DNA of 64,000 bases from a virus (lineage: Duplodnaviria > Heunggongvirae > Uroviricota > Caudoviricetes): IMG/VR virus record IMGVR_UViG_3300006131_000005. One strand, 5' to 3'. This document shows, one piece after another, positions 1,932-50,933 of this stretch. A model generated the notes under the pieces. That model made no database searches and was not told where the DNA came from. It worked only from the letters and a program-made list of their open reading frames with translations. The stretch's first letter is position 1; the number at the start of each line of letters is the position of its first letter. The position numbers and the translations under genes were made by a program.

Positions 1932-3212
1932 TTGGCGAACATTGCCACATTCCTGCAAAAAATTCTGGACGCCGTATATGGCGAGGAAGTACGAGGTTCC
2001 ATCCATGACGCGCTGGTAGCTATGAATGTAGAGTCATCTGAGGCTATGCGGTTTGCGGCGACAGCCAAGGACTCTGCGGCCGCATCCGCTCTCGAAGCTA
2101 AGGCTTCAGCCGCCACGGCTGAGCAGAAGGCGACCGAAGTTGTGGACTCCGCCAGGGCCGCCAAGACCTCTGAGACAAACGCCAAAACTTCGGAGCTTAA
2201 TGCGATCCAGCAGGCTTCTAACGCAGCAAATGCCGCCGCGGCAGCCAAGGCTTCGGAAACTGCTGCCGGTAATTCGGAAGTAGTCGCCACGCAAAAGGCT
2301 CAGGAGGCCGCCGATTCTCAGGCCGCTGCCGCCCAGAGCGAGGCTGAGGCAAAGGCCGCCGAGGAACGGGTCAAGACGATTCGCTCTGACGTGGAGACCC
2401 TTGGCGCACAGGCCACAGCGGACAAGGAAGCCGCAGAGACGGCCAAAACAGATGCGGAGGCCGCCCGTGACGAGGCTCTCATCAGTCAAAATGGAGCGAA
2501 AGGCTCTGAGAACGCCGCCTTGGTGGCAAAAACCGCCGCAGAGCTCGCCAAAAACGATGCTGAAGCGGCAAAGTTAACCGCTCAGGCCGCCAAGGCAGCC
2601 GCAGAGACGGCCAAAACAGATGCGGAGACCGCCAAGGACAAGGCAAAGGAGTCTGAGGATTCTGCCGCCAAAAGCGCCCTTACTGCCCAGCAGTACAGCG
2701 GTAAGCCTCCAAAGCCCCAGGATGGGACTTGGTGGATCTGGGATGCCGATCAGCAGAAGTATTTGGACAGTGGTATTGCCTGCGACCTGGTGGGTCCTAC
2801 TGGAAACGGTATCCAGGATATCAAGCTCACCAAGGGCGACCACACTCCTGGTACTACGGATATTTACACCGTGACCATGACGGATGGCTCGACCATGACC
2901 ATTTCGGTCTACAATGGCCGGAACGGTACGGGAACCGGCGATGTGCTGGGCATCTCTTTTGATTTGGTTCTCCCGGTTTCCGGGTGGGCCAACGGGGAGA
3001 TCACTGTCGCCGACAGCCGTCTGTTAGCCCTGGCAACACATAAGTACCTTGTGGACGCTGACGAAGCCAGCCGTGAGGAGTATCTGGAGTGCAACGTGCA
3101 GGCCCGGAACATCACCACGACTGGCTTTATCACGTTCAAAAATGACACCGACCCGACAATGGACCTGACGGTGAATGTCATCCGTCTGGAACTGTCGGCC
3201 AACGGCGCATAG
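1932..3212 (+). CDS. Tail fibre-like protein, Ala-rich coiled-coil shaft with C-terminal globular tip
   Basis: TTG start after AGGGGTGA RBS; ~220 aa of AxxA(K/E) repeats then Gly/Thr-rich knob ending ..DLTVNVIRLELS. Confidence 0.55.
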   Translation: MANIATFLQKILDAVYGEEVRGSIHDALVAMNVESSEAMRFAATAKDSAAASALEAKASAATAEQKATEVVDSARAAKTSETNAKTSELNAIQQASNAANAAAAAKASETAAGNSEVVATQKAQEAADSQAAAAQSEAEAKAAEERVKTIRSDVETLGAQATADKEAAETAKTDAEAARDEALISQNGAKGSENAALVAKTAAELAKNDAEAAKLTAQAAKAAAETAKTDAETAKDKAKESEDSAAKSALTAQQYSGKPPKPQDGTWWIWDADQQKYLDSGIACDLVGPTGNGIQDIKLTKGDHTPGTTDIYTVTMTDGSTMTISVYNGRNGTGTGDVLGISFDLVLPVSGWANGEITVADSRLLALATHKYLVDADEASREEYLECNVQARNITTTGFITFKNDTDPTMDLTVNVIRLELSANGA

Positions 3213-3835: not shown

Positions 3836-3868
3836 CCGCAACCAAATAATTTCAAGGAGGACTTGTAT

Positions 3869-4306
3869 ATGTCTAAGCACACTACCATTGACCAGCTCAA
3901 AATGCTGGCCCAGCGCACCAAGACCGAGCTGGCCGCTCTGGACGGGAAGATCGCCGACTATGGCCTGACCAAGCAGGAAACCGCTGAGGACGGCTATCTG
4001 GCCACCTATCAGCTCACCAAGGACGGCGCCCCCACCGGCGACAAGATCAACATTCCCAAGGACCTGCTGGTGAAGTCCGCCTCCGTCAAGGAGGTTGCCG
4101 AAGCTGGTCAGCCCTATGAGGGCGCTGCGGTCGGTGACAAGTACATCGACTTCGTCATCAACAGCGTTGAGGGCGACGCCAACGAGAGCCATATCTATCT
4201 GGCTGTGAAAGACCTTGGCGGGAGCGTTACCGTGGATACCGCTACAGACTCCGAGGTGGAGGCTATGTTGACCGAGGTCTTCGGCCCTGCCGCCACCGAG
4301 CCCTGA
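3869..4306 (+). CDS. Tail-module protein, paralog A (N-term TTIxQLKxLAxRTK; C-term TDSEVEAMLTEVFG)
   Basis: ATG 8 nt after AAGGAGG; shares N-terminal motif with 4372..4749 and C-terminal motif with 3227..3835. Confidence 0.5.
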   Translation: MSKHTTIDQLKMLAQRTKTELAALDGKIADYGLTKQETAEDGYLATYQLTKDGAPTGDKINIPKDLLVKSASVKEVAEAGQPYEGAAVGDKYIDFVINSVEGDANESHIYLAVKDLGGSVTVDTATDSEVEAMLTEVFGPAATEP

Positions 4307-4371
4307 GCAATCTGAGAGCGGGGGATAGTTTTTTCCTGTCCCTCGTTCGTCTTTTGAAAGGACGGAAACGA

Positions 4372-4749
4372 ATGGCAGAGAAACTGACTACGATCGAACA
4401 GCTTAAAAAGCTGGCGCTCAGGACCAAGGCTGATTCCGCTGCCCGTATCTCCGAGCTGGCCGAGATGATCGCCGCCGGTCTGGAGGATTCGCAGATCGGC
4501 TTTGCTGTCACTCTGCCGGCCGCAAACTGGAGCGGCAGAGCACAGACAGTTCAGCACGAGTCCTTCCTGGCAGACAGCAGCTACTGGTATCTTGTCTGCG
4601 GCGACGCCGACTGCTTCATTGAGTGCGGCGACACCGGCATCCGAGCGGACAACATTACAACCAACGGTGAGGCCACGTTCCACTGTGAGATCACGCCGGA
4701 GAACGACCTGACCGTGAATATTCTTCGACTGGAGGTCGTCGAGAAATGA
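4372..4749 (+). CDS. Tail-module protein, paralog A' with fibre-tip-like C-terminus (..DLTVNILRLEVVEK)
   Basis: ATG after GGACGGAAACGA; N-term paralogous to 3869..4306, C-terminal ~30 aa homologous to C-terminus of 1932..3212. Confidence 0.5.
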   Translation: MAEKLTTIEQLKKLALRTKADSAARISELAEMIAAGLEDSQIGFAVTLPAANWSGRAQTVQHESFLADSSYWYLVCGDADCFIECGDTGIRADNITTNGEATFHCEITPENDLTVNILRLEVVEK

Positions 4750-7619
4750 GTAATCCCAATGAAGTCGGAAAGGTGTTCAACCTGACCGGCAGCGGCGGAG
4801 GCAGCGGCTCTATCAAGCTGGAGAGCCTGACCGTCACCAAGCCGCCCAAGAAAACGATCTATAAATCCGGGGAGAGCTTCGACCCCACCGGGATGGTGGT
4901 GGAAGCAAGCTACGGCTTCGGCCTGACCTCGGAAGTGACCGGATACACCGTGACGCCCTCTGTGCTGACGGACGGCGTGACGGAGGTCACCATCACCTAT
5001 ACGGAGGGCCGGGCCACCAAGACGGCCAGCACTCCTGTCACTGTGGAAAAGGTCCTGGTCTCCATCGAGGTTACCACCCCGCCTACTAAAACTATTTACG
5101 ACTATCTGGAGAGCTTTGACCCGGCCGGTATGGTGGTCACAGCTATGTTCTCGGACGGTTCCACGGCCGTTGCCGAGGGTTACAGCTATCCCAGCTCCGC
5201 GTTCTCCACACTGGGAGATCAGGTAGTTAATTTGGACTACACCTACGAGGGCGTGACCAAGAGTACACACTTGTCAGTAGCAGTTGACGCTATCGTGGTG
5301 GCGGTCCCTACGCAGAAGAACGCGCCCGCCTATGACGGCTCCAGCAAATCTCCTTCCTGGGATGGATACGATTCCATCAAAATGGCTTTGGCCGGGACCA
5401 TTGACGGGGTCAACGCCGGCACCTACACCGCCAAGTTTACGCTGGTCTATGGATATTTGTTCCCCAACGGCACCAGCGAAGCCACGGTGGACTGGATCAT
5501 CAGCCGGGCGGTCATTCCGGCGCTGCCCACCCAGAGCAATGTTCTGGCGGCCGACGGCACGCCCAAGTCGCCCACCTGGGACGGCTACATCGTGGGTCAG
5601 CTCACTTTGGGCGGCGACCGGTTCGGCACTGAGGCCGGAGACTACACCGCCGAGTTCACCCCCACGGACAACTATCAGTGGTGGGACGGTACCACTGGAA
5701 TGAAGACAGCCACCTGGACCATCACCAGCGTCATCGTGCCCATCCCGACGCAGAAGAATATCCCCACTTACACCGGGGCGGCCCAGACGCCGCAGTGGGA
5801 CAACTTCGACACCGACAACTGCACCGTCCAGGTGACGCCGGCTACGGATGCCGGGGAGCACTCTGCGGTATTCAGTCTGGTGCAGGGCATGTGGTCGGAC
5901 GGCACCACCGCTAACAAGACGGTGAAATGGGTCATCAACCGGGCCACCATCGCCAAGGTCCCCGCCCAGAGCGGGATGCCTAAGTATGACGGTAACCCAA
6001 AAACCCCGACCTGGGACACCAACTACGACAGCGCCAAGATGACGCTGAGCGTGGAGTCTCAAATCAATGCTGGGACGGGATACACCGCTTCGTTCACGCC
6101 CACTGCCAACTATCAGTGGTCGGACGGGACGGTTGAGGCCAAGGTGGTCTCCTGGGGCATCGCCAAGGGGGACAACGCCATCACGGTGAGCCCCGCGTCG
6201 CTGACGCTGAACATGACCACCAAAAGCACCAAGTTCACCGTGGGCCGCAAGGGCAACGGCGCTATCACCGCCACCTCCAGCGATACCAAGGTCGCTACCA
6301 TCGGCTCTGTCAATCAGAACACCGGCGAGGTGGTGGTCAACAGCGTGAACGACACCAGCGGTACCGCCACCATCACGGTCAAGGTGGCCGAAGGCGACAA
6401 CTATCTGGCCCCTGCCAACAAGACCGTTTCGGTGAAGGCGAGCTTCCGGGAGTATCTGTATGGCTTCGACATCAACCTGAACGACAGCAATCCGGCCACC
6501 CGGGTCAGCTATCCCAGTGACGTGGAGAACTCCGGCTTTGCCAAGGCCATGATGAACTTCGGCGGCGCGTTCAGCTATGGTGGATGGCCCAGCACCCCTG
6601 GCTCCAAGTTTATGCCCCGGCCCTGTATGCTGAAGTATGACGGGACGGTGGCTTACTATCTCAACCCCAACGACCTGACCAAGAAGGCGGACGGCTCCGC
6701 TTCGGACGTGGCCAACATCAACTTCGGTGGCAATGCCATGATGGAATGGCCCAAAATCTACGTCAAGCGGTGGGAGAGCGGCGGCGTGTACCACTTCCGG
6801 TGTTCGGACGTGAAGGTGGACGCCGACTACGAGTGCTGGAGCAACTACGACAAGAACAACAAGGAGATCCCGCACTTCTACACGCCCATCTTCGACGGGG
6901 CATGGGACTCCTCCGGGCGGATGCGCTCCATCAGCGGGCAGACCTGCAAGGTCAGCACAACAGCCCAGCAGGAGATCGACGCCGCCAAGCTGAACGGCGC
7001 GAACATCTGGTACACCGAGGTCATCGCTGATATTTTCCTGGTGCAGGACCTGCTCACCATGATGTTCAAGAGCACCGACCTTCAGGCCACCGCAGGGTAC
7101 GGCCGGGTCAGCGCGAGCAACGCCATCGCGACCGGCACCATGAACACCAAGGGTATGTTCTGGGGAGCAAGCGACAAGACCTCCGGCGTCAAGGTGTTCG
7201 GCATGGAGAATCCGTGGGGCAACGTCTGGCGGAGGACCGCTGGGCTCATCTGCAACGCGGGCTCGGTCAAGGCCAAAATTACCAGGGGGACAAAGGACGG
7301 TTCTACCGCCGCCGACTACAACACGGACGGCTCCGGCTACAAGAGCATCATGACGATGGCTACGGGCGGCGGATACATCAGCGCCATGCGAACGGAGAAG
7401 TTCGGACGCCTCGCCACCGCTTTCAGCGGCTCGACAACCACCTATGAGGCGGACTACGCCTACTACAACAACTCCGGCGTCAGATACGCTATCGTTGGTG
7501 GCCACTGGAACCGTGACCTGGTTGCGGGACCGTTCTCCATCGACCTGAACGATACGCCCGGCGTTGCGCACGCCAGCTTTGGCGCGGCCCTCTCTTGTAA
7601 ACCACTTGCCGCGGCGTAG
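4746..7619 (+). CDS. DGR target protein: N-terminal bacterial Ig-like domains x2, four ~88-aa tandem Ig-like repeats, C-terminal C-type-lectin-fold variable domain; likely receptor-binding tail protein
   Basis: 957-aa ORF with ATGA overlap to upstream gene; repeats P(T/A)Q(K/S)N.P.YDG..K(S/T)P.WD...AG.YTA.FT; last ~40 codons form VR (..AIVGGHWNRDLVAGPFSIDLNDTPGVAHASFGAALS). Confidence 0.8.
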   Translation: MSNPNEVGKVFNLTGSGGGSGSIKLESLTVTKPPKKTIYKSGESFDPTGMVVEASYGFGLTSEVTGYTVTPSVLTDGVTEVTITYTEGRATKTASTPVTVEKVLVSIEVTTPPTKTIYDYLESFDPAGMVVTAMFSDGSTAVAEGYSYPSSAFSTLGDQVVNLDYTYEGVTKSTHLSVAVDAIVVAVPTQKNAPAYDGSSKSPSWDGYDSIKMALAGTIDGVNAGTYTAKFTLVYGYLFPNGTSEATVDWIISRAVIPALPTQSNVLAADGTPKSPTWDGYIVGQLTLGGDRFGTEAGDYTAEFTPTDNYQWWDGTTGMKTATWTITSVIVPIPTQKNIPTYTGAAQTPQWDNFDTDNCTVQVTPATDAGEHSAVFSLVQGMWSDGTTANKTVKWVINRATIAKVPAQSGMPKYDGNPKTPTWDTNYDSAKMTLSVESQINAGTGYTASFTPTANYQWSDGTVEAKVVSWGIAKGDNAITVSPASLTLNMTTKSTKFTVGRKGNGAITATSSDTKVATIGSVNQNTGEVVVNSVNDTSGTATITVKVAEGDNYLAPANKTVSVKASFREYLYGFDINLNDSNPATRVSYPSDVENSGFAKAMMNFGGAFSYGGWPSTPGSKFMPRPCMLKYDGTVAYYLNPNDLTKKADGSASDVANINFGGNAMMEWPKIYVKRWESGGVYHFRCSDVKVDADYECWSNYDKNNKEIPHFYTPIFDGAWDSSGRMRSISGQTCKVSTTAQQEIDAAKLNGANIWYTEVIADIFLVQDLLTMMFKSTDLQATAGYGRVSASNAIATGTMNTKGMFWGASDKTSGVKVFGMENPWGNVWRRTAGLICNAGSVKAKITRGTKDGSTAADYNTDGSGYKSIMTMATGGGYISAMRTEKFGRLATAFSGSTTTYEADYAYYNNSGVRYAIVGGHWNRDLVAGPFSIDLNDTPGVAHASFGAALSCKPLAAA
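7486..7597 (+). repeat. DGR variable region (VR) at 3' end of target gene
   Basis: ~112 bp aligning to TR 7764..7877; ~18 mismatches, all but one where TR has adenine. Confidence 0.75.
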
Positions 7620-7763
7620 CCGCGTAAAGGAGAGGTCTGGAGAACCTTGGGTCTCCGGGGAAACGAAATTCAAAATGGAGCGCCTGTCCATCCATAAACG
7701 GGCATAGGGGCCGGGGTCGAAAGATACCCTCCCCTAATTTTTATAGGGGTATGCACTGCGCCC

Positions 7764-7877
7764 ACGCTATCGTTGGTGGCAACTGGAACAATGACCTGAA
7801 TGCCGGACCGTTCTACATCAACCTGAACAATACGCCCGACAATACGAACACCAACATTGGCGCGGCCCTATCTTATC
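7764..7877 (+). repeat. DGR template region (TR), non-coding, AAC/AAT-rich
   Basis: Reads NWNNDLNAGPFYINLNNTPDNTNTNIGAALSY in VR frame (AAC codons typical of TR); lies between target and RT. Confidence 0.75.
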
Positions 7878-8046
7878 CACGCGAACCCTCATATATGAGC
7901 AATGCAGTGCATATCGCTGCCGAACGCAGTAAGGGGAGGGGCTTCACCGGCCTCTCCCTTTCCTCACCGCTTGGTGAAAATCAACTCGGTGCAAGCACCC
8001 GTTAGTATCTGAAAGAGGTGAAAGCGGGTGAGAGGATAAGAGAGTA

Positions 8047-9270
8047 ATGAAATCCTACAAACACTTGTTTGACATCTGCATATCGGAAGAAAACCGCCGC
8101 AAAGCCATCAAGCAGGCCAAGCGTACAAAGCGCGTCCGTAAGATGCTGAAGAAACGGCACATGTCGGATGATGAACTGCTGTGCGCCTCCTACGACTGGA
8201 TCATGCAGTACGAGAACGCCGAGCATGTTCCGAAGGTCATCCATGACGGGACGGCCCACAAGGAACGGGTCATCATCGTGCCGACGCTGGAGGAGCTTAT
8301 CGTTCAGCACTGTGTCGCTAAGGCCATGGAAGAGATGTTCTGGCATGGAATGTACCAGCACAGTTACGCCAGTCTGCCCAAGCGAGGAGCCCACAAGGCC
8401 AAGAAAGTCATCGAGAAATGGATCGAAACCGACCCGAAGAACGTGAAGTATGTTCTGAAAATGGACGTCCATCACTTCTTTGACAGTATCCCGCACGATA
8501 TTCTGAAAGCAAAGCTCCGCAAGCATATCCACGACGACATGATGCTGGACTTGCTGTTCAAGATTATCGACGTGACTGACGCCGGTATCCCTCTTGGCTT
8601 CTATACCTCGCAGTGGCTCTCCAACTGGTATTTGCAGGAGCTGGACCACTTCATCAAGGAGCAGCTTCACGCGGTCTACTATGTCCGCTACATGGACGAC
8701 ATGGTCATCTTCGGGTCAAACAAGAAAGTTCTGCACCAAATCAGACAAGCCATCTCCGAGTATCTTGAGACCAACCTGGGCCTGGAGCTGAAAGGAAATT
8801 GGCAGGTGTTTCGTTTCTCCTACACCGTCAACGGTGAAGACCGAGGGCGGCCTCTGGACTTCATGGGCTTCCAGTTCTATCGGAACCGGACGGTGCTGCG
8901 CAAATCTATCATGCTGAAAGCAACCAGAAAAGCCCGCAAGATTCACAAGAAACCTTATCAGGAGCGCAAGCCAACTGTTCACGACTACCGCCAGATGATG
9001 TCGTATCTGGGATGGATCGACTGTACCGACACCTACCGGATGTACCTGAAGCATATCAAGCCGAGGGTCAGCTTCCAGCGGATGAAGCGGTACATTTCCC
9101 GCTATGACCGGCATGACGACCGTCGTGTGTACGAGCAGCTTGTGCAGCTATATTTGCCGAGAGGAGGAAAGCGCCGTGGAACCCGTTTACATCACCGCAG
9201 AAAGTACCGTCCGCCCCAAGGAAATCGAAGTGGGCGTAACGACTGTGTATCTGCGCCGCAACATTGTTGA
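8047..9270 (+). CDS. DGR reverse transcriptase
   Basis: RYMDDMVIFG (YxDD) and IPLGFYTSQWLSNWYL (DGR-type LGxxxSQ) motifs; basic N-terminus; Arg-rich C-terminal tail may extend beyond functional end. Confidence 0.85.
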   Translation: MKSYKHLFDICISEENRRKAIKQAKRTKRVRKMLKKRHMSDDELLCASYDWIMQYENAEHVPKVIHDGTAHKERVIIVPTLEELIVQHCVAKAMEEMFWHGMYQHSYASLPKRGAHKAKKVIEKWIETDPKNVKYVLKMDVHHFFDSIPHDILKAKLRKHIHDDMMLDLLFKIIDVTDAGIPLGFYTSQWLSNWYLQELDHFIKEQLHAVYYVRYMDDMVIFGSNKKVLHQIRQAISEYLETNLGLELKGNWQVFRFSYTVNGEDRGRPLDFMGFQFYRNRTVLRKSIMLKATRKARKIHKKPYQERKPTVHDYRQMMSYLGWIDCTDTYRMYLKHIKPRVSFQRMKRYISRYDRHDDRRVYEQLVQLYLPRGGKRRGTRLHHRRKYRPPQGNRSGRNDCVSAPQHC

Positions 9271-9484
9271 GACGCAGCGCACCGACCCCATGGATGAGGG
9301 CCGCGAACCCACCCCCGTGTTCGTCTATGAGGAAGCCCAGCTCACCAAGGATGAAGCCCTGCTGGTTCTCGCCGAGGGCCAGGAGAACCACTCCAAAGAG
9401 CTAGCGGATGCCGACGGCATCAACATCGACCACGAGTACCGGCTGACCCTGCTGGAGCTGGGCCTGTCCGAGACTGATATTTGA
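9173..9484 (+). CDS. XkdW-like small phage protein (tail fibre-associated), tentative
   Basis: GTG after GAGGAGGAAAG; ~104 aa acidic protein directly upstream of an XkdX-like peptide as in PBSX xkdW-xkdX. Confidence 0.35.
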   Translation, partial: AVEPVYITAESTVRPKEIEVGVTTVYLRRNIVETQRTDPMDEGREPTPVFVYEEAQLTKDEALLVLAEGQENHSKELADADGINIDHEYRLTLLELGLSETDI

Positions 9485-13137: not shown

Positions 13138-14382
13138 CTATCTTATTTTTCCGATTTCGGTCTTTAACCACTCGAACTCACGTTGAGTGTAGACCTTCTC
13201 GGTGATGTCCGAAATCTTGTGACCAACCATATATTTGATGGCATACTCGTCAACCCCGCCCTTTTTACAAGCCGTGACAAAATGTTTTCTACCATCGTGC
13301 GGACGATGCTCAGGATTCAGCTTCAGCTCATCACGAATCATTCCAAAACCTCTCTGGTAACGTGGATACGTCAGCATCGTGGGTTTGCCGCTTCGGCCAT
13401 CCGTACAAGTAAATAAATACTTGCTGCCAGCCTTTTGAGACGCCTGATATTGTCTCTCGACTAAGTACCGTATCTTCGAGTGGATCGGTACGACACGGTT
13501 CTCTCCGGCATCAGTTTTCATACCGCCTTTGAATGTCCAGTTTTCAAGGTCAACATTCTCCAGCTCCAGTAGGCCGAGCTCCTGGGGCCGCCAGCCTGAG
13601 TAACACTGGATCAGCAAGATATCGACATAGCGTTTATCGTCAACATGGGCCCAAAGCTGGGCCATCTCTTCTTCGGTGAAGGGAATATGCTCCTGTTTCA
13701 CCGTTTGGATCTCTTTGATGGTTTCTTCAGTGAGGTTGAAGGTGCGAGAGTAGTTCCGATCAACAAGTTCATATTCCAAAGCGTAGTCTAACATGAGATT
13801 GAACAGAGATTTAATTTTGTTCTTCATACTTGCCGAAGGATGCTGCTCTTTCCCTTTGACTTTGGCGGTTCCTTCTTCCATGCAGCCTTTTACATGACGA
13901 GCTCGAACATCCATCACCCGCATGTCATAGACAGCCGAACAATAAGCCCAAGCGGACGTTACAGCTCTGATACTGCCATCTGCTTTGAGTGTCTTAAAAT
14001 ATTCCTCCGACCACTTGTCGTAAAGTTCTTTGACGGTAATGGACGGCTCCAGGTCATAGGGATTCTTGTTGTACTCTACCAAGGCCGCATAGGCATCGTT
14101 GTAAGTAGGAAAATACGATTCCGGTTTTAGAGGCTTACAAATGGGTTTCCCTTCTGAGGTCTTACCAACCGTAACCATCGCCCGAAATGGGTTCCGAAGG
14201 TTGCGGTTTTTTATTTCGCTGATTTGACCGAATCCGTTTGGAAGGCGGCGTCGTTTGTTTCCCCTGGCACGGGGTTTGCGTTTGACGGTTGGCTGCATTG
14301 GATAACCACAATGCGGACAGGCCGAAGCCTTATCACTTACTTGCAGTTCGCATTCAGGGCATTGGATGAGCATGATTGACAC
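13138..14382 (-). CDS. int: Tyrosine site-specific recombinase (phage integrase) with N-terminal zinc ribbon
   Basis: CPEC..CPHCG N-term; C-terminal catalytic region HRPHDGRKHF..., KYMVGHK...Y; only long minus-strand gene in region. Confidence 0.85.
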   Translation of the reverse strand: MSIMLIQCPECELQVSDKASACPHCGYPMQPTVKRKPRARGNKRRRLPNGFGQISEIKNRNLRNPFRAMVTVGKTSEGKPICKPLKPESYFPTYNDAYAALVEYNKNPYDLEPSITVKELYDKWSEEYFKTLKADGSIRAVTSAWAYCSAVYDMRVMDVRARHVKGCMEEGTAKVKGKEQHPSASMKNKIKSLFNLMLDYALEYELVDRNYSRTFNLTEETIKEIQTVKQEHIPFTEEEMAQLWAHVDDKRYVDILLIQCYSGWRPQELGLLELENVDLENWTFKGGMKTDAGENRVVPIHSKIRYLVERQYQASQKAGSKYLFTCTDGRSGKPTMLTYPRYQRGFGMIRDELKLNPEHRPHDGRKHFVTACKKGGVDEYAIKYMVGHKISDITEKVYTQREFEWLKTEIGKIR

Positions 14383-18192: not shown

Positions 18193-18711
18193 ATGGAACA
18201 GAAGATTTCATTGGACATGCCCATCGAGGAACTTGACTTTTCCACCCGATCCTACAACTGCCTGACCCGAAGCGGCATCCTTACGCTCGGCGCTCTCGTT
18301 GACACAAGCCGCCGGGAATTGGGCTGTATCAGGAACATGGGCGCAAAAAGTATGGAGGAAATCGAGGAAAAGGTACGCCTGTGCGGTTATGCACTCAAGG
18401 ACGCCCCGAGATGCGACCATCTTAAAAAGATGCAATTTCTGAAGAAGGCTCACGACCACTTCTTCGAGCTGACACGAAGTTTCAACTCCACACACTTTTC
18501 TCCGTACAGCCAGGATTGGGTGTATCCGTCCGTACTGTCGAGCAGTACCGGGTGGGAATACGTCAGAAAAGTGGTGCTCATGGCGTATGGCGTTTCTGAT
18601 ATTTGTTCTCTCCCGGACGACAAAGAAGAGGAAGTCAATGCCTTTGCGATTGAATTGACCGATATGCTCTTCGGCCGGCTCAGCAAGCAGACAACAGGCT
18701 ACGTCCGATAA
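18193..18711 (+). CDS. Protein with RNA polymerase alpha-subunit C-terminal-domain (alphaCTD)-like helix-hairpin-helix
   Basis: IEELDFSTRSYNCLTRSGILTLGALVDTSRRELGCIRNMGAKSMEEIEEKV aligns with RpoA CTD ([43 protein letters not shown]). Confidence 0.5.
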   Translation: MEQKISLDMPIEELDFSTRSYNCLTRSGILTLGALVDTSRRELGCIRNMGAKSMEEIEEKVRLCGYALKDAPRCDHLKKMQFLKKAHDHFFELTRSFNSTHFSPYSQDWVYPSVLSSSTGWEYVRKVVLMAYGVSDICSLPDDKEEEVNAFAIELTDMLFGRLSKQTTGYVR

Positions 18712-25828: not shown

Positions 25829-26656
25829 ATGAAAATCCCGACCGGATTAGTGCCCAAAGCGGAGCGGTTCTTGAAAAAGGCTTCGCCGACGATCCTTACC
25901 TGCATTGGCGCGGCTGGTGTCGTGGCTACCGCTATTATGGCGGCCAAGGCGACCCCGAAAGCGTTGAAGCTGATCCACTCGGACAGCCGCATCAATCATG
26001 ATGGAGACCCGAATGCCTACACCAAGAAAGAGGCAGTGGCGTCCTGCTGGAGGTGTTACGTCCCCACGGTAATTGTCGGCGGCTCCACCATCGCCTGCAT
26101 ATTTGGGGCGAATGCTCTGAACAAACGCCAACAGGCGGCTCTTGCCAGCGCCTACGGGCTCGTGAGTCAGGCCTATAACGACTACAAGCGCAAGGTTCGC
26201 GAGAATTTTGGCGAGGAGGCCCACCGGGATATCATGCGGCAAATCGCCGCTGAACGCAGCAGTGGCGCTACGATCATCTCCCCCAATCTCATTAACGGTT
26301 CGTGCTTGGAATTTGAGGGTGCGAACGAGGAACAGCGGCTGTTCTATGACGCGATGTCTGAGCGATATTTTCAGGCTACCATCAGTCAGGTTCTCCAAGC
26401 GGAGTATCATCTCAACCGTAATTTCGCGCTTGGTGGAGGATTTATCACGCTGAATAACTTTTATGAATTTCTCGGCATTGACGGTGTTCAGGGTGGCGAT
26501 GACATTGGTTGGATGGTTTCGGACGGCCTCTATTGGGTCGATTTCGACCACAGCCGAGCCATGGTGGACGATGGTCTGAATGGTGAAGTCGAATGTTTTA
26601 TCATCGACGCGCCGTTTCCGCCGGTCAGCGAAGCGGAATACGATGAATATTTGTGA
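25829..26656 (+). CDS. Two-TM membrane protein, paralog family member 1 (unknown function)
   Basis: Shares SP(E/T)IL..IG.AG...T.IMA.KATPKAL, CY(I/V)P..IVGG..IAC, ALA.AY, LN.FY..(L/I)G(L/I)...G...GW with 27232..28017 and 29932..30915. Confidence 0.55.
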   Translation: MKIPTGLVPKAERFLKKASPTILTCIGAAGVVATAIMAAKATPKALKLIHSDSRINHDGDPNAYTKKEAVASCWRCYVPTVIVGGSTIACIFGANALNKRQQAALASAYGLVSQAYNDYKRKVRENFGEEAHRDIMRQIAAERSSGATIISPNLINGSCLEFEGANEEQRLFYDAMSERYFQATISQVLQAEYHLNRNFALGGGFITLNNFYEFLGIDGVQGGDDIGWMVSDGLYWVDFDHSRAMVDDGLNGEVECFIIDAPFPPVSEAEYDEYL

Positions 26657-26925: not shown

Positions 26926-27214
26926 CATGGATGCGCTTGATGCGGTAGACAAAATCCGCTGGTTCATGGAGCTTCCGGAAGCTCGCCCCGGTCTGCCCTG
27001 GGATAAGGAGTTTGAGAATCGTGCCTATATTCGCTGGGCCTGTAGTGAACTGACGCAGGATCTTATGGAGCGTCTGGATATTCCGGCCGAGATGACCATA
27101 GATGCGTTCTGGTTTCGGATGTTGCAGTTCTATCATTTCGCGGGCACTCCGAAAATGAGCAAAATCTTCCAGATCGCGATGGACACAGCGGATACAATCA
27201 AAGCAATGATTTGA
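26926..27214 (+). CDS. Hypothetical protein
   Basis: Internal ATG of ORF 26834..27214 after GTGAGGTGAATGAC. Confidence 0.4.
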
Positions 27215-27231
27215 AAGGAGATAGTTTTCTG

Positions 27232-28017
27232 ATGGATAAGCAAATGCTTGTCAATGCGGTTAAGAGTGTACGGACGGCGGCCAAACGGCACAGTCCGGAG
27301 ATACTCACCGGCATTGGCATCGCCGGCATGATTACTACGACTATCATGGCGGTTCGCGCCACACCGAAAGCTCTGACCATCATCGGCGAATGCGAGGTGG
27401 ATGAAAACCGGAAGCTCTCCAAGACGGAGGTCGTAAAAGCCACCTGGACCTGTTATATTCCGTCCGCAATCGTCGGCGGGGCGTCTATCGCTTGTCTTGT
27501 GGGCTCCACCTCCGTCAACCTTCGCCGGAACGCGGCCTTGGCGGCGGCTTACAGTTGCGCCGAGACTGCGCTGCGGGAGTACCAGGACAGGGTCGTAGAG
27601 GTCATCGGCGAGAAGAAGGAGCAGACGATCCGGGACGCGGTGGCAAAGGAACGGATCGAGAAGCATCCGGTTTCCGAGCAGCAGATTCTCTACACCGGCC
27701 ACGGTGATACCTTATGTTATGATGCTTGGTGCTCGCGGTACTTCAAATCCGACATTGAGGTGATTCGGCGGGCTATTCATGAACTGAATGACCGGCTTCG
27801 GGTGGACAATTATATTTCCCTGAACGAGTTTTATGACGCCATCGGCTTGGAAGAATCGAAAACCGGAGAAATCCTCGGGTGGAATATCGGGAAGGGCTAC
27901 ATCCAGCTTGCCTTCAGTTCCGTGTTGGCGTCCGATCTGACGCCGTTTCCGGATACGCCCTGTCTGGCGATCGACTTCCGGGTGCCCCCGCAGTACGACT
28001 ACGACCGGGGCTGGTGA
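27232..28017 (+). CDS. Two-TM membrane protein, paralog family member 2
   Basis: ATG after GAAAGGAGATAGTTTTCTG; see 25829..26656. Confidence 0.55.
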   Translation: MDKQMLVNAVKSVRTAAKRHSPEILTGIGIAGMITTTIMAVRATPKALTIIGECEVDENRKLSKTEVVKATWTCYIPSAIVGGASIACLVGSTSVNLRRNAALAAAYSCAETALREYQDRVVEVIGEKKEQTIRDAVAKERIEKHPVSEQQILYTGHGDTLCYDAWCSRYFKSDIEVIRRAIHELNDRLRVDNYISLNEFYDAIGLEESKTGEILGWNIGKGYIQLAFSSVLASDLTPFPDTPCLAIDFRVPPQYDYDRGW

Positions 28018-29931: not shown

Positions 29932-30915
29932 ATGAAAAAGACTGAACTGACTGCTACCTTGAGCCGCACCGTAAATAAGGTCGGCCTCCAGATCAAGAAG
30001 AGGAGCCCCGAGATCCTGATCGTCGCCGGCGTGGTAGGCACCGTCACCAGCGCCGTCATGGCCTGCAAGGCCACCCTGAAGGTGGACGAGATCATGCGGG
30101 AGAGCAACGACACCATCGAGAAGGTCCACAAGGCCCGGAGCATGGATGGGCAGCCGTCCCCCAGCAACCCTGAGAAGGTCATCGAGTACACCGCCGATGA
30201 CGCGAAGAGCGACTTGACCAAGGTCTATATCCAGACCGGCCTGAAGCTGGCTCACCTCTACGCCCCCTCTGTCATCCTGGGTGCTCTGTCCATCACCTGC
30301 TTCATTACGTCCCACAACATCATGCGCAAGCGCTGTGCCAATCTGGCGGCGGCATACGGCACCTTGGATACGGCCTTTAAGAAGTACCGCGAGCGGGTGG
30401 CAGAGCGCTTTGGTGAGGAAGTGGAGAAGGAGATCCGCTACAACATCAAGGCCAAGGAGATCGAGAAGACCATCGTGGACCCTGAGACCGGCGAGGAAAA
30501 GACTGTGAAGGAGACCGTCAAGGTCATGGACGGCGACCCTTCTTCGGTCAGTCCCTATGCTGTGGAGTTCAGCGAGAGCAACCCCAACTACTGCAAGGAC
30601 CCCAATATGAGCTTTGCCTTCCTGCGGGCCCAGCAGCAGTATTTCAACGACCTGCTCCAGGCGAAGGGGCACGTCTTCCTGAACGAGGTTTACGACGCTC
30701 TGGGCCTCCCTCGTACCAAGGCTGGCGCTGTCGTCGGCTGGGTCTTCGACTCGGATGCGCCTGTGGGCGACAACTATATCGACTTCGGCATGTACACCGC
30801 GGACAAGGAGAAGGTGCGGGATTTCGTCAACGGCGTGGAGCCGACGATCCTGCTGGACTTCAATGTGGACGGAGTGATTCTGGACCTGATCGCAAGCCAT
30901 CAGGCGATTGCGTAA
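29932..30915 (+). CDS. Two-TM membrane protein, paralog family member 3
   Basis: See 25829..26656; longest and most divergent copy. Confidence 0.55.
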   Translation: MKKTELTATLSRTVNKVGLQIKKRSPEILIVAGVVGTVTSAVMACKATLKVDEIMRESNDTIEKVHKARSMDGQPSPSNPEKVIEYTADDAKSDLTKVYIQTGLKLAHLYAPSVILGALSITCFITSHNIMRKRCANLAAAYGTLDTAFKKYRERVAERFGEEVEKEIRYNIKAKEIEKTIVDPETGEEKTVKETVKVMDGDPSSVSPYAVEFSESNPNYCKDPNMSFAFLRAQQQYFNDLLQAKGHVFLNEVYDALGLPRTKAGAVVGWVFDSDAPVGDNYIDFGMYTADKEKVRDFVNGVEPTILLDFNVDGVILDLIASHQAIA

Positions 30916-33270: not shown

Positions 33271-36200
33271 ATGTTAGATTTCGTAACGATTTCAACGCGT
33301 TCTACGAAGCGTGGCGTAATAGAAATCTATCCAAAGTTCATAGTCCGAACGAGCAACGACCTCATGATCCGGGGCGGCGATTTCTACGCTATCTGGGTTG
33401 ATGAACGCGGCTTATGGTCTACCAATGAGGAGGACGCTCTTCAGCTCATAGACCGCGAACTGGATAGATACGCGGAGGAACATCGCCACGGTTTCGATGC
33501 GAACATTCACATCCTACATCTGTGGGACGCCGAGTCGGGCATGATCGACGCATGGCATAAGTATTGCCAGAAGCAAATGTGGGACTCTTTCCATATGCTC
33601 GACGAAAAATTGATATTCTCCAACAGCAACGCTGGCAAGAAGGACTACGCCAGCAAAAAACTGCCCTATCCGCTTGAACCAGGAAGCACGACAGCCTATG
33701 ACAAGCTGATGTCCACTCTCTACGAACCGGAGGAGCGTCACAAGATTGAGTGGGCTATTGGCTCCGTTGTCTGCGGTGAGTCCAAGAAGCTCCAGAAGTT
33801 CATGGTGCTGTATGGCGAGGCCGGTACGGGTAAGTCTACGGTGCTCAACATCATCCAGAAACTCTTTGAGGGCTACTACAAGACCTTTGAGTCGAAGGCG
33901 CTTGGGTCGGCCAGTAATGTATTTGCGTTGGAAGCGTTTCGCTCGAACCCGCTGGTAGCCATTGAGCATGACGGAAAACTGTCTCGCATTGAGGACAATA
34001 CCCGTCTGAACAGTCTGGTTTCCCACGAGGAGATGACGGTGAATGAGAAGTTCAAGTCTGTCTACACCAACAGCTTCAAGTGCTTTCTGTTCATCGGCAC
34101 AAATGAGCCCGTCAAGATTACGGACGCCAAATCGGGCTTGATCCGAAGGCTCATCGACGTCTCCCCATCGGGAAACAAACTGCCAGCTGCGGAATACCGG
34201 GCAATCGTGAAGCAGATCGACTTCGAGCTCAGCGCGATTGCCTACCACTGTCAGGAGGTCTACCAGGAAGACCCCGGCTACTATGACGATTACATCCCTA
34301 TCGCCATGCTGGGGGCCTCCAACGACTTCTATAACTTTGTGGTGGACAGCTACCCGGTGTTCAAGCAGGAGGACGGCGTATCGCTGAAAGCAGCCTGGGA
34401 GATGTATAAAACCTACAATGAGGAGGCGAAGGTCACCTATCCACTGAGCAAGCGGGCGTTTAAGGAGGAACTGAAAAACTATTTCTGGACGTATGATGAT
34501 CGCCCTACCCTTGACGACGGAGCCCGTATCCGCAATTACTACAGCGGGTTTCGGACGGAAAAGTTCGAGGATCGGCTTGTCAGTATCACGCCCGAGGAAA
34601 AGAAGCCAAAACTCATTCAGTTTGACGCCACAGAATCTATATTTGACCGGGAGTGTTCCGATTGCCTCGCGCAGTATGCCTCGGCCAATGAAACTCCGAC
34701 CCAGAAGTGGGAAAAGGTCACGACTCAGCTCTCGCAGTTGGACACCAGTCGGCTTCACTATGTCAAGCTGCCGGAAAACCACATCGTCATCGACTTTGAT
34801 ATTCCGGACGACCAGGGCAACAAGTCCTTTGAGCGGAATCTGGAAGAGGCGAGTAAGTGGCCGGCGACCTATGCCGAGGTGAGCAAGAGCGGCTGCGGCA
34901 TCCACCTGCACTACATCTATACCGGCGATGTATTAAGACTCAGCAGGGTCTATGCAGACCACATTGAGATCAAGATATTTACGGGAAAGAGCTCCCTGCG
35001 CCGGAAGCTGTCGAAAAGCAATAACCTGCCTATCTCGACGATCAGCTCAGGTTTACCGTTGAAAGGAGAAAGTAAAGTGGTAAACGATAAAGTGGTCCAA
35101 AGCGAGAAAGGGCTTAGAAGACAGATCAGGCAAAATCTCAATAAGGAGATCCATCCCAATACTAAGCCCAGCATCGACTTTATCTATAAGATCCTGGAGG
35201 ACAGCTATAACAGCGGCCTCGTCTATGATGTGACGGATATGCGCAACGCTGTTCTGGCCTTCGCGGCCAACAGCAGCAACAAATCCGAGTATTGCATCAA
35301 ACTGGTCAACCGGATGAAGTTCAAGTCCGACGATCAGTCTCCCTCGGCGAAGGACGACAAGGCCAAGCTGGTGTTCTACGACGTGGAGGTCTTCCCCAAC
35401 CTGTTCCTGGTGAACTGGAAGTTCGAGGGCCCGGGGGCGTCGGTGGTGCGGATGATCAATCCCACCTCCAAGGAGATTGAGGAACTGATGAAGTTCAACC
35501 TGGTCGGCTTCAACTGCCGCCGGTATGACAATCACATCCTCTACGCCCGTCTGATGGGATACACCAACGAGCAGCTCTATAACCTGTCCCAGCGCATCAT
35601 CAGCAGCGAGAAAAAGGCCCGGAGCAACAACTGCTTCTTTGGTGAGGCGTATAACGTCTCGTATACGGACGTCTATGATTTCTGCTCCAAAAAGCAGTCT
35701 CTGAAGAAGTGGGAAATCGAGTTGGGCATCCACCATCAGGAGCTGGGCCTTCCCTGGGATCAGCCGGTGCCGGAGAACATGTGGATGAAGGTCGCCGAAT
35801 ACTGCGACAACGACGTTATTGCCACTGAAGCTGTATTCAACGCCCGGAAGGCGGACTTCGTTGCTCGAGAGATTCTGGCGGACGTGGCCGGCATGACGGT
35901 CAATGACACCACCAACACCCTGACCGCCCGGATTATCTTTGGCGGGAACCGTAAGCCGCAGGATGTGTTTAACTATCGGGATATGGGCGACGTGAGCCAG
36001 ATATTTGATCCTGACGGAGATCTGCCTTTTACCATGGGCCCCCAGGAGTTCGATCGGTATACGGCCTTCGACAAAAAGAAGCGGCCTATCTTCCCTGGGT
36101 ACAAGTTTGAGAACGGCAAGTCCATCTATCGCGGCGAGGAGGTTGGCGAAGGCGGCTATGTCTATGCCGAGCCCGGAATGTACGGGAACATCGCCCTGCT

Positions 36201-37401
36201 GGACATCGCCTCCATGCACCCCAGTTCCATCATCGCGGAGGAGCTCTTCGGCCCCGAGTTCACCAAGCGGTTCGAGGAGATCAAGGAAGCCCGTGTCGCC
36301 ATCAAGCACAAGGACTTTGACCGGGCCCGCAAGATGCTGAACGGCGCTTTGGCAAAGTATCTGACCGATGAGAACGCCGCTGCTGATCTGGCTCAGGCTC
36401 TGAAGATTGCCATCAACTCGGTTTACGGCCTTACCTCTGCCAACTTCGAGAACCCCTTCCGAGACAACCGGAACCGGGACAACATCGTCGCCAAACGCGG
36501 AGCCCTGTTCATGGTCAACCTCAAGCACGAGGTCCAGAAACGGGGCTTTACTGTTGCCCACATCAAGACGGACTCCATCAAGATCCCCGATGCTACGCCG
36601 GAGATCATTCAGTTTGTCACCGACTACGGCAAGCTCTACGGTTATATTTTCGAGCATGAAGACACTTATGACCGTATGTGTCTGGTGAACAATGCCGTCT
36701 ACATCGCCAAGTATAAGACCCCTCATATTGACAAAAAAACTGGGAAAGAAATCTGGTGGACGGCCACCGGGACGCAGTTCCAGGTTCCCTATGTGTTCAA
36801 GAAGCTCTTCAGTCATGAGGAGATCACCTTCGAGGACATGTGCGAGACCAAGTCGGTAAAGGATGCTCTATATTTGGATATGAACGAGAAGCTGCCGGAT
36901 GTGTCCGAGTATGAGAAAGAGCATACGACTCTATGGAAGGATATTTGCGATATGACGCTCCCTCATGATGCAGAAATGGAGCGTAAATGTGCAAGAGCCG
37001 AGGAGTTGTCTGATCTCATTGCTCAGGGTCACAACTACGTCTTTATCGGAAAGGTCGGTCAGTTCTGTCCTATGATGGACGGCTTCGGCGGCGGTGTCCT
37101 GCTTCGCCAAACGGATAACAAGAAGACCGGCGAAAAGGGCTATGCCGCTGTGACTGGCACGAAGGGCTACCGCTGGATGGAATCCGAGATGGTCAGACAA
37201 CTGGACAAGCAAGACGGTATCGACCGGAGCTATTATGACGCCATGGTGGACGCGGCTATTCAGGACATTTCCGGTTATGGTGACTTCGAGTGGTTCGTCT
37301 CCGAAGACCCTTACGTCAAGGTCGAGGACGATACCCCACCGTGGGAAAGTCCCGGCGAGCCTTGGCAGTCCGACGACAACATCGCCTTTGATGTGCGCTA
37401 A
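33271..37401 (+). CDS. Multidomain replicase: SF3/D5-like helicase (Walker [10 protein letters not shown]) - primase-polymerase (prim-pol) - 3'-5' exonuclease - family B DNA polymerase
   Basis: P-loop at aa ~185; [15 protein letters not shown] and GIHLHYIY (prim-pol); Exo I FYDVEVFP, Exo II YCDNDV; Pol motif [14 protein letters not shown], motif [11 protein letters not shown], motif [10 protein letters not shown]. Confidence 0.8.
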
Positions 37402-43260: not shown

Positions 43261-43641
43261 ATGGACTTTCACACCGAATATTTAGGAAAGCCCTTTGTCC
43301 CGACATGGATTTACGGAGATGTGGACCCGCACAACGAAGAGTTTAATCAGACAATTCAAGCCGTAGAACGTGCGCTCGGTTTCAAACTCTTCGTATGGCA
43401 GAAAGCTTTCATCAACCGTGGAGAGTTTCGGCAGATGGGCGCGACTACGGCGAAAATTCTTCGTGAATTGCTGAATGTCTCTGGCGAGCCCATCGACTAC
43501 AGTCGCCCGTCGGCAAGTAAGCGGGATCAGTTTTACCGGGAAGAGCTTCGTCGTATCAAGTGCAAGCTGGATGAGGCCGGAATCCCGACGAGGCTCGTTT
43601 GGTTCTCGGAACGGGATAAGCACTATTGGCTGCATCGCTGA
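43261..43641 (+). CDS. Hypothetical protein
   Basis: ATG after GGAGGAATGAGGAACT. Confidence 0.45.
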   Translation: MDFHTEYLGKPFVPTWIYGDVDPHNEEFNQTIQAVERALGFKLFVWQKAFINRGEFRQMGATTAKILRELLNVSGEPIDYSRPSASKRDQFYREELRRIKCKLDEAGIPTRLVWFSERDKHYWLHR

Positions 43642-43671
43642 CTATCAACTATAAAAAGGAGAAACAACCTA

Positions 43672-44720
43672 TGGAACTGAAAAAATTCTGCACCGACCAC
43701 AACATCCCCCTAGAGGAGCTCGGCCCCATCGGCGAGGTGAGCGATGGCTTTCACACTTTCGACTCTCTCTACCACCAGAGGCTGATCCTCTTCGCCGCCC
43801 TGGTCAGTGCCTTTCCGAATAAAGCGTGGAAATCCCACAAGCACAGCGACGGCGAGGCTCCCTTCGGCGGAGGCTGGTTTATCGTCGGTATTCAGACACC
43901 GGAAGGCCAGTACACCTATCACTACGAGGACAAGGATTGGAATATTTTCCAGTGTCCGGAAGTGGAGAAGGCTCCCGAGTGGGATGGTCACACCGATAAG
44001 GACGTCACGCGGCTCCTCTCCCTGTTCAAGCCTGAGCCGGGCACACAGTCCGACTGGGCCGAGCGGGAGGTCGCGCTTGCTATCGCCGCTGAAAAAAAGA
44101 TGGCGGAGGGTACGAATGACTGGGCCTATGGTGCAGCTTGCTATGGGAGCGCTCTGCGGGCCCACCAGTCTCTTTCCCGCGACGGTCACTCCGGCTACAG
44201 CATCCAGATCACCAAGGGTATCCTGAACCGGCTGATTGACGGGAAGTGCCTGACGCCCATCGAGGACACGCCGGATATTTGGACGGACATCTCGGAGTCC
44301 TTCTCCAAGGACGATAAACGCAAGCATTACCAGTGCAACCGCATGTCCTCTCTATTCAAAGAGGTGGCCGAGGACGGCACCGTGACCTTCAGCGACGGGA
44401 ATCGGGTCTATTGCGTCAATGCCAATGATCCCGACAACACCTATACGAACGGCTTCGCTACCAATCTGGTCAATAAGATATTTCCCATCCGGATGCCCTA
44501 TTTCCCGGCCAGTAAGAAGTTCCGGGTCGTTGTGGATGAGTTCCTCTTTGATCCAAAGAACGGCGACTTCGACACGATCGGTTATCTCTGCATCATGACT
44601 CCGGATGGAAAGAAGGTTGAACTGAACCGCTACTTCAAGGAAGAGGGCGGAAAGCTGGTGCCCATTGAGAAGACCGAGTTCGATGAGCGGAAAGCGAAGA
44701 AGGTGAAGATAAATGGCTGA
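43672..44720 (+). CDS. Hypothetical protein (349 aa)
   Basis: ATG after AAAAAGGAGAAACAACCT. Confidence 0.5.
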
Positions 44721-50653: not shown

Positions 50654-50911
50654 ATGGAGCAGAAAAACTTTATTACATCGTGGCAGGAGGCCCACGCCAT
50701 CATTGATGAGGCTATGACGAAGGGCGACAGGTCGGTCTCCATCTATATTTCGCCAGACGGAGGTATGTCCATCAGCGTCTATCCCTGGCCGGATGAGGAG
50801 TCGTTGCGTACGGCCTACGAACAGGGCAAAATCTCGTATAACGACTATCGAGCAAAGCTTGGTCTGCCGATGATTAAGAACAATGAAAATCATTTTTCAA
50901 CTGAAGTCTAA
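50654..50911 (+). CDS. Hypothetical protein
   Basis: ATG after GAAAGGAAACTAAAAAT. Confidence 0.4.
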   Translation: MEQKNFITSWQEAHAIIDEAMTKGDRSVSIYISPDGGMSISVYPWPDEESLRTAYEQGKISYNDYRAKLGLPMIKNNENHFSTEV

Positions 50912-50933
50912 GAAACATAAGGAGGAATACATC

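Follow-up and report, generated by a model that had tools for sequence, protein, structure and literature searches.

Can a diversity-generating retroelement (DGR) diversify its target gene without the accessory protein Avd? Avd is present in ~74% of DGRs and is essential in BPP-1, and DGR biochemistry to date all comes from that Avd-dependent element. The question is raised by a locus in a 64,000-nucleotide stretch of a Caudoviricetes genome (IMG/VR record IMGVR_UViG_3300006131_000005), which we refer to as the window. A reading of the sequence alone (the sequence-only reading) had proposed that the window carries a complete DGR directed at a tail protein. We found that the element consists of a target gene with a variable region (VR) at its 3' end, a template repeat (TR), and the gene that encodes a reverse transcriptase (RT), with no gene for Avd; all parts of the element lie on the plus strand. 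We consider it very probable that this is a functional accessory-free DGR in a temperate phage of gut Oscillospiraceae, and we propose a mechanism by which it would operate.

Differences between VR and TR fall at template adenines

A repeat search of the window returned a direct repeat of 111 nt (7486-7596 and 7764-7874; 84% identity, offset 278 nt) at the place where the sequence-only reading had put the two copies. Ungapped extension lengthens the match to 113 nt, so defining VR (7486-7598), which codes for the final ~38 residues of the target's variable region, and TR (7764-7876). No further VR-like copy was found when both strands of the window were searched. The earlier reading had stated that mismatches are concentrated at TR adenines, and tabulation by TR base agreed: 18 of the 19 mismatches fall at the 33 adenines of TR, and one falls among the 80 other positions (Fisher exact p = 5e-11). 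The sole non-adenine mismatch (7526 G versus 7804 C) is in a third codon position and is synonymous. At the adenine sites, VR carries G in ten cases, C in five, and T in three. The repeat anatomy and the adenine specificity of the differences are direct observations at this locus.

When read in the frame of the target, TR consists mostly of AAC and AAT codons, and the VR codons at those sites are varied. Thirty of the 33 adenines are diversifiable, and no A-to-N change within the ten AAY codons can produce a stop codon; the coding capacity of the diversification is ~10^17 protein variants. The stop codon of the 957-aa open reading frame (ORF) that contains VR (4746-7619) lies 21 nt past the end of VR. 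The gaps between VR and TR (165 nt) and between TR and the RT gene (170 nt) are both gene-free. An 84-aa ORF that covers TR (7751-8005) was weighed as a possible accessory gene but discarded: the reading frame of VR is simply carried into TR here, the coding score is low, and there are no family matches or homologues.

The 3' boundary of VR (7579-7598, TTGGCGCGGCCCTCTCTTGT) resembles an initiation of mutagenic homing (IMH) sequence and comprises a GC-rich block and two positions that are always unlike TR. The VR sites that match TR adenines A7870 and A7875 (7592 and 7597) are C and G in each of the five VRs compared below, whereas the adenine sites upstream vary, and an alignment of relatives shows that the boundary is strongly conserved across the clade. 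By sequence comparison, the fixed differences 7592/7870 and 7597/7875 define a boundary of the IMH/IMH* type, with a putative role in homing.

The reverse transcriptase is of the DGR type

The sequence-only reading had also described an RT with YMDD and LGxxxSQ motifs directly after TR. The gene in question (8047-9270) starts 170 nt past TR and encodes 407 aa, and both motifs are present, as LGFYTSQ (aa 183-189; nt 8593-8613) and YMDD (aa 215-218; nt 8689-8700). The protein matches Pfam RVT_1 (E 6e-19) and is assigned to PHROG phrog_1423, "Reverse transcriptase" (E 3.5e-103). In a PDB sequence search, its best solved-structure match was 8ub7_A, a 328-aa "Reverse transcriptase" (E 2.7e-23), in an alignment in which the IP(L/I)G..TSQ and YMDD motifs line up; group II intron RTs rank next in the match list. 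From its length and sequence, we take 8ub7_A to be the Bordetella phage RT, bRT. The window's RT has a basic C-terminal region of ~100 aa that reaches past the 328-aa length of this closest solved relative. The part of the gene that encodes this basic tail overlaps the next ORF (9104-9484) by roughly 95-165 nt, an overlap that is likewise called in relatives, and a GTG at ~9176 within that ORF is served by a strong AGGAGG ribosome-binding site.

An RT of this kind might instead have come from another retroelement (a group II intron, a retron, or a defence-associated RT), in which case the repeat would be an unrelated partial gene duplication. The best NCBIfam match is indeed the group II intron RT/maturase family TIGR04416 (E 1.2e-34), and there are weaker matches to Drt3a, retron, and Abi families. 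All of them score far under the curated cut-offs (TIGR04416, 120 bits versus 300; Drt3a, 79 versus 200; retron St85, 65 versus 235), as would follow from the position of DGR RTs as the sister group of group II intron RTs. Furthermore, an Rfam scan of 7400-9400 with E values up to 1 found no intron or retron RNA, and returned only RT-18, RT-4, and RT-17. A neutral duplication would not place 18 of 19 differences at the adenines of one copy, nor would it hold that copy invariant. The adenine test, together with the population comparison described next, already refutes this explanation, to which we attach practically no weight.

VR turns over beside an invariant TR

If the element is active, copies of the same phage should differ in VR, and the sequence-only reading had predicted A-to-N hypervariation at the population level. 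We compared the window with copies of the same phage whose RTs are at least 99.5% identical, namely three IMG/VR contigs (L010, L011, and L012, compared by blastn owing to indels) and two contigs from isolates (L092 and L097). TR is identical at 113 of 113 positions in all six copies. The five VRs of this phage, in contrast, are all different, with 16-23 differences in each pairwise comparison. The sites that vary include 27 of the 30 diversifiable adenine positions but just 2 of the 80 non-adenine positions, so the predicted hypervariation is seen across five independent copies. L010 and the window show no differences in 6639-7490 and 7577-7954, and ~22 inside VR. Of the 156 relatives fetched, 130 possess a VR/TR pair of their own that is biased to adenine and arranged as in the window.

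Because five different VRs stand beside identical TRs in flanks that are ~98% identical, the turnover of VR must be younger than the divergence of these phages. We regard this comparison of natural copies as strong evidence that mutagenic retrohoming is ongoing or was so very recently. The opposite explanation is that the DGR is a fossil, in which the VR/TR pattern was left by past activity and diversification has since ended. Some elements among the relatives do seem degenerate (L005, with a TR that lacks 15 adenines; L007, with a single VR/TR hybrid and a shorter RT; and L092, with a one-nucleotide insertion in VR). The window, however, has an intact RT ORF with catalytic motifs and a TR that retains its 33 adenines, and a fossil would be hard to reconcile with five unrelated VR sequences set among near-identical flanks and identical TRs. 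We therefore consider the fossil explanation highly improbable and favour an element that is still active or was so until very recently.

The irregular relatives show several further features. The TR of L005 (7732-7842) differs from that of L006 (6711-6821) at 16 positions, 15 of which are adenines in L006 and one of which is the IMH* position, and the two RTs are identical; the VR of L005 is a clean adenine-only derivative of the L006-type TR (19 adenine differences, 0 non-adenine). The TR of L005 seems to have been overwritten by mutagenised cDNA ("template erosion"), unless the contig is a chimera of metagenome assembly. In L007, the single repeat (7617-7727) is mutated at adenines in its 5' part, as a VR would be, and is identical to TR in its 3' part, including IMH*, and the RT has 352 aa; this arrangement reflects one of two events, a recombination between VR and TR that inactivated the DGR or a collapse of the repeats in assembly. 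The VR of L092 (3439-3560; Oscillospiraceae isolate MGBC000153) carries its inserted nucleotide near the 3' end, relative to TR and to the other VRs. The insertion would frameshift the conserved C-terminal GAALSCKP motif, and its source could be an indel made by the RT or a mistake in sequencing.

Two Oscillospiraceae genomes each contain two related DGR prophages, with RTs that are 100% and 98% identical to that of the window (L092 and L093) or 100% and 87% identical (the L094/L097 pair). In the first of these genomes, the TR of the second prophage (L093) has 7 non-adenine changes, which are tracked by its own VR. This suggests that there is no cross-talk between the two elements of one genome.

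The target is a tail protein with a predicted variable-protein fold

The N-terminal ~550 aa of the 957-aa target consist of immunoglobulin (Ig)-like repeats, as the earlier description of an Ig-repeat protein had it: Pfam Big_3 is matched (1.3e-7), and internal direct repeats spaced 219, 237, and 435 nt in the gene back the assignment. The remaining ~405 aa (aa 553-957; nt 6402-7616) have no significant match in Pfam, NCBIfam, or PDB sequence searches. We modelled this C-terminal module with AF2 from an alignment of 50 homologues (pLDDT 77, pTM 0.82). In a Foldseek search of the PDB with this model, the only significant matches were two DGR variable proteins, TaqVP of Thermus aquaticus (5vf4; E 1.3e-7, probability 1.00) and Mtd of a Bordetella phage (1yu4; E 9e-4). 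TaqVP (PDB 5VF4), the best structural match, has a C-type-lectin fold; it differs from the target in being bacterial rather than from a phage and in having no Ig-repeat N terminus, and its sequence identity is 14% with a TM-score of 0.41-0.44. TM-scores of the model against DGR variable proteins are modest overall (0.28-0.44). The model supports the Mtd/TaqVP type of C-type-lectin variable-protein fold for this domain, which is the fold that the sequence-only reading had anticipated.

The placement of the target in the tail module was likewise borne out. The gene follows a Prophage_tail gene and fibre-like genes and precedes an XkdX-like gene and probable lysis genes, and its product belongs to PHROG phrog_5302, "tail protein" (E 4.5e-103). 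Taking gene position, PHROG label, and fold together, we infer that diversification of VR most likely alters the host surface receptor that is recognized by the phage. Alternatively, the DGR may be real and its product a virion-surface adhesin, for instance one that would bind mucus or glycans through the Ig-like repeats, so that the DGR would tune environmental attachment and not host range. This idea draws on the Ig-like (Big_3) nature of the N-terminal region, and some DGR targets of Faecalibacterium phages are Hoc-like Ig decoration proteins that have been proposed to bind mucus. VR, however, is located in the C-terminal Mtd/TaqVP-like module, outside the Ig repeats; the gene closes the tail module, with Tal-like and fibre-like genes before it, in the window as in every relative; and the PHROG label and the annotation of the equivalent gene of Faecalibacterium phage FP_Epona, as a BPP-1-like Mtd, point to the tail. 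We thus judge the adhesin explanation unlikely and retain that of a receptor-binding tail protein.

The element and its relatives have no Avd gene

The sequence-only reading had called the DGR complete. VR, TR, and RT are all present, and to that extent the description stands; there is no Avd accessory gene, so the layout is not that of BPP-1 but that of "Architecture A" (Wu et al., 2018; PMC5758913), in which the target lies next to and upstream of a TR-RT core and accessory genes are lacking. None of the 100 genes called in the window matched Avd (PF05635) or a similar family in Pfam, and no Avd gene was found in ~130 relatives with the same layout. The relatives are compact, with 90-250 nt between VR and TR and then 110-190 nt between TR and the RT gene. 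An ORF of the size of Avd (131 aa, 4354-4749) was rejected as a candidate; it has no Pfam hit, and its C terminus is like that of a tail-fibre-like 426-aa protein.

Accessory-free elements of this kind made up 29% of 372 DGRs in the survey of Wu et al. (2018; PMC5758913), who inferred an Avd-independent mechanism and noted an RT lineage without avd ("Lineage 3"). Given this proportion, Avd is not a universal requirement of DGRs. Likewise, Avd occurs in just two of the DGR-carrying genera of Faecalibacterium phages (Cornuault et al., 2018). We infer that catalysis by the 407-aa RT is independent of Avd.

The closest described counterparts are the DGRs of FP_Epona and of the Butyrivibrio phages Arawn and Idris. 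They have the same gene order as the window (tail or baseplate genes, target, a gap that holds TR, RT, a small ORF, XkdX, and lysis genes), and they too have no Avd and a non-coding gap of ~375-445 nt around TR. The FP_Epona and Butyrivibrio phage loci contain adenine-biased VR/TR pairs, with differences at 9 of 24 adenine sites in L008 and 13 of 26 in L009, and none at non-adenine sites in either. In other respects they are distinct from the window: their RTs are just 40-44% identical to that of the window, their hosts and phage genera differ, their targets, at 415-523 aa, are shorter and have no long N terminus of Ig repeats, and the spacer of FP_Epona is Rfam RT-4 rather than RT-18. As an accessory-free phage DGR, the element described here is ordinary and resembles those of FP_Epona and Arawn; the Oscillospiraceae phage that carries it is undescribed.

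Covariation supports a structured DGR RNA

Folding of the region that comprises TR, its flanks, and the spacer is more favourable than that of shuffled sequence (z = -3.4). We tested five helices, comprising 33 base pairs, in an alignment of 43 distinct relatives. Pairing was maintained in 98.5% of cells, compared with 27-48% in controls in which the 3' partners were slid, and double compensatory changes were found in 19 of the 33 pairs; none of 500 shuffles reached the observed values. We therefore regard the predicted helices of the DGR RNA as established by covariation.

The most prominent of these helices encloses TR. Its 5' strand (7750-7759, TATGCACTGC) is predicted to pair with a strand in the spacer (7904-7913, GCAGTGCATA); seven of its ten pairs show double compensatory changes, and 98.6% of cells are paired. 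Distant relatives, including FP_Epona, have helices of unrelated sequence at this position, and that of FP_Epona has 13 bp. Downstream, two spacer hairpins, P2 (7916-7930) and P3 (~7932-7960), which together span 7916-7960, show double changes in 4 of 5 and 4 of 6 pairs, and both are deleted in L058, L067, L062, L100, and L073.

The rest of the spacer is a full-length match to the Rfam RT-18 RNA (RF03021; 7965-8044; cmscan 49.1 bits versus a gathering score of 41.3, E 9e-8), which ends 2 nt before the RT start codon. Its parts are P4 (7965-7976), the single-stranded AAAAUCAACUC, P5 (7996-8002 with 8024-8030), and an invariant tail, GGAUAAGAGAG (8034-8044), that overlaps the ribosome-binding region of the RT gene; P4 and P5 are supported by covariation. 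Of 17 relatives scanned, 10 likewise have RT-18 immediately ahead of the RT start. Weinberg et al. (2017; PMC5737381) described the RT-n motifs as adjoining RT genes, identified RT-10 with the TR-RT spacer of BPP-1, and speculated that others have a role in DGRs. The present locus confirms this speculation for RT-18, which sits between a verified TR and its RT. By way of the helix that encloses TR, the functional DGR RNA is predicted to reach upstream of the Rfam RT-18 model.

The 3' end of TR (7868-7878, CTATCTTATCC), which contains IMH*, is the proposed template strand of a duplex of the template:primer type. Ten of its 11 positions are complementary to GGATAAGAGAG (8034-8044), in the tail of RT-18. 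Four classes of relatives have different cores, with matching changes on both sides of the duplex. As MAFFT shifted the register of length variants, we tested this pairing by permutation of duplex energies between own and crossed partners: each of the four variant classes ranked its own partner first (p ~0.002). RNAalifold proposed a pairing of the tail with the IMH of VR instead. We discounted it, as the columns involved are all invariant and the 3' end of TR is the nearer and co-varying partner.

Two elements follow VR. A GC hairpin (CGCGGC-GTA-GCCGCG, 7610-7624) was found by sequence and DNA folding, and the stop codon of the target (TAG, 7617-7619) spans its loop and 3' arm. Its stem shows compensated changes among relatives (CGCGGC/GCCGCG, GACGGC/GCCGTC, GCTGC/GCAGC, GATGC/GCATC, and GCCTC/GAGGC), and 68 of 74 distinct relatives have a hairpin of at least 5 bp within 45 nt of VR. 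The hairpin corresponds to the GC-rich inverted repeat that has been described downstream of IMH in DGRs. A conserved non-coding block (7628-7660, AGGAGAGG..GGAGAAC..TCTCCGG) has near-invariant columns in the 43 relatives and folds as a second hairpin, for which no covariation was found, its sequence hardly varying; nearly every relative has it between the VR hairpin and TR. Candidate roles of this block are target recognition, the 5' end of the DGR RNA, or a terminator. Between the target and TR, RNA folding also predicts a terminator-like hairpin with a T-run (7706-7742), which is present only in the window's own subclade and missing from most aligned relatives; a simple terminator scan did not call it.

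Genome context, host, and relatives

Nearly all of the 100 genes called in the window, a set obtained by scoring ORFs for codon usage, are on the plus strand. Upstream of the target are a Prophage_tail (Tal-like) gene and several tail-fibre-like genes. After the target come the RT, a small ORF, an XkdX-like ORF, membrane proteins, and then a tyrosine integrase on the minus strand (13138-14382). The small ORFs after the RT were considered as DGR-specific accessory genes and rejected, as they are XkdX-type genes of the tail/lysis junction and are also found in Arawn and FP_Epona. Relatives found through the RT preserve the gene order of the window, and either an integrase or host genes lie beyond the lysis region, which indicates that both integrated and excised forms have been sampled.

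Two Oscillospiraceae isolates cultured from mouse gut, MGBC000153 and strain 44-34, encode RTs at least 99.5% identical to that of the window. The host is a mouse-gut member of the Oscillospiraceae, and the carrier is a temperate phage or prophage. A megablast search of the locus against deposited phages gave no match, and the element is without a close cultured relative. The nearest deposited phages by RT are Arawn, Idris, FP_Epona, and Lactobacillus phage LBR48 (38-44% identical), and in gut metagenomes the RT lineage comprises more than 3,000 RT clusters at 90% identity.

Observations were also made on other genes of the window. The tail-fibre-like proteins encoded upstream of the target (1932-3212, 3863-4306, and 4354-4749) have modules in common: the 426-aa and 131-aa proteins have similar C termini (..NITTTGFITFKNDTDPTMDLTVNVIRLEL and ..NITTNGEATFHCEITPENDLTVNILRLEV), and the 147-aa and 131-aa proteins share an N-terminal TTI(D/E)QLK motif. 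A 172-aa protein (18193-18711) contains the C-terminal domain of the bacterial RNA polymerase alpha subunit (PF03118, 5.8e-21), which is unusual in a phage, and it may act in the takeover of transcription. A span of 5 kb contains three DUF6353 paralogues (E 1e-72 to 1e-82; 25829-26656, 27211-28017, and 29932-30915), and each product has a transmembrane-like segment at its N terminus. A 1376-aa protein (33271-37401), with a DUF5906/AAA (primase-helicase-like) segment near residues 180-293 and a C-terminal half that appears polymerase-like by eye, is probably a fused replication protein. In the 364-aa product of 43626-44720, a WDGH domain (1.8e-40) precedes a Tad3 domain (5.6e-26), a type I Thoeris inhibitor, which makes this a candidate anti-defence gene. 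Finally, three genes (50883-51314, 51693-52541, and 52567-52908), which between them encode a full-length FolD-like methylene-tetrahydrofolate dehydrogenase/cyclohydrolase, a DUF1599 "nucleotide modification associated" protein, and a MazG-like pyrophosphohydrolase, hint at nucleotide or DNA-modification metabolism in this phage.

Discussion

We propose that the element operates as follows. TR and its flanks would be transcribed, probably within the late tail operon, given that no separate promoter was detected; co-transcription with the tail genes is the reading that we adopt. In the resulting RNA, the 10-bp helix 7750-7759/7904-7913 would close TR off as a loop, and the RT-18 RNA in the spacer (7965-8044) is the likely scaffold for binding of the RT. 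The 3' end of TR (7868-7878) would then pair with the invariant GGAUAAGAGAG before the RT start codon, forming the probable start site of cDNA synthesis. By analogy with the TR:spacer template:primer duplex of BPP-1, cDNA synthesis would start near 7867-7870, by cis-priming at this duplex. The last diversified adenine (7856) and the adenines that are never transferred (7870 and 7875) agree with such a start. The RT would copy TR, misincorporating opposite adenines, and the cDNA would replace VR in the tail-protein gene, with the IMH-like sequence and the GC hairpin marking the 3' boundary and keeping transfer one-way. As an expected outcome, the ligand-binding face of the Mtd/TaqVP-like C-terminal domain could take up to ~10^17 forms.

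Much of this scheme has counterparts in the BPP-1 DGR (mtd-VR, avd, TR, and brt). In both elements, VR occupies the 3' end of a tail-protein gene and differs from TR specifically at adenines; both also have an IMH-like boundary followed by a GC hairpin, an RT with [LIV]GxxxSQ and YMDD motifs, and a target of the Mtd fold, which is predicted for the window. The spacer of BPP-1 forms RNA duplexes with the region upstream of TR and with the 3' end of TR, and that of the window is predicted to do the same. In BPP-1 these duplexes position cis-priming and termination, and the duplex of spacer and upstream region has been termed "cPRT Stop" by cryo-EM; the helix that encloses TR in the window matches it. 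The two systems differ in that the window has no avd, with 165 nt separating VR and TR, and in its RT, which has low identity to that of BPP-1 and is longer (407 versus 328 aa) by a basic C-terminal extension. In addition, the window has no room for the ~46-nt Avd-binding element of the BPP-1 spacer, and its spacer RNA is RT-18, not RT-10. Conservation of the RNA elements had been surveyed only in Avd-bearing DGRs (Handa et al.).

Several points weigh against a functional accessory-free DGR that works in this way. bRT is inactive without Avd. The putative primer strand of the window lies 3' of the RT-binding hairpins and adjoins the RT start, whereas that of BPP-1 lies 5' of the stop strand, so the analogy with BPP-1 may fail in its particulars. 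The core of the duplex between the TR end and the tail is invariant in most relatives, and the tail (8034-8044) could be conserved simply as a ribosome-binding site. A scan for a sigma-70-like promoter near TR found none. The differences between VRs were recorded between samples and isolates, and the receptor-binding role is argued solely from gene position, PHROG label, and fold similarity.

A broader suggestion, which we put forward tentatively and consider less probable than not, is that Avd-independent DGRs of this large lineage of gut phages have a rearranged RNA layout relative to BPP-1, in which the Avd-binding element is absent and an RT-18 scaffold precedes the primer strand. As the primer strand overlaps the ribosome-binding region of the RT gene, its pairing with the 3' end of TR could link repression of RT translation to the onset of cDNA synthesis. 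The primer strand GGAUAAGAGAG is also complementary to the IMH of VR, CTCTCTTGT, and in an RNA-cDNA chimera the RNA part could help to direct the cDNA to the target's IMH. The role of Avd might pass to the RT's basic C-terminal extension.

Approximately 31,000 DGR examples have been catalogued, and DGRs in gut phages are commonplace; the remaining interest of this one lies in its Avd-independent mechanism and its RNA map. The element has value as a model system, in that it belongs to an abundant lineage, has cultured hosts, and shows clear natural turnover of VR. The covariation-backed RNA map (the helix that encloses TR, the RT-18 scaffold, and the duplex of the TR end with the tail) yields testable constructs. 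If function without Avd proves true, an RT and ~300 nt of RNA would make a simpler model of the DGR and, potentially, a simpler tool for targeted mutagenesis.

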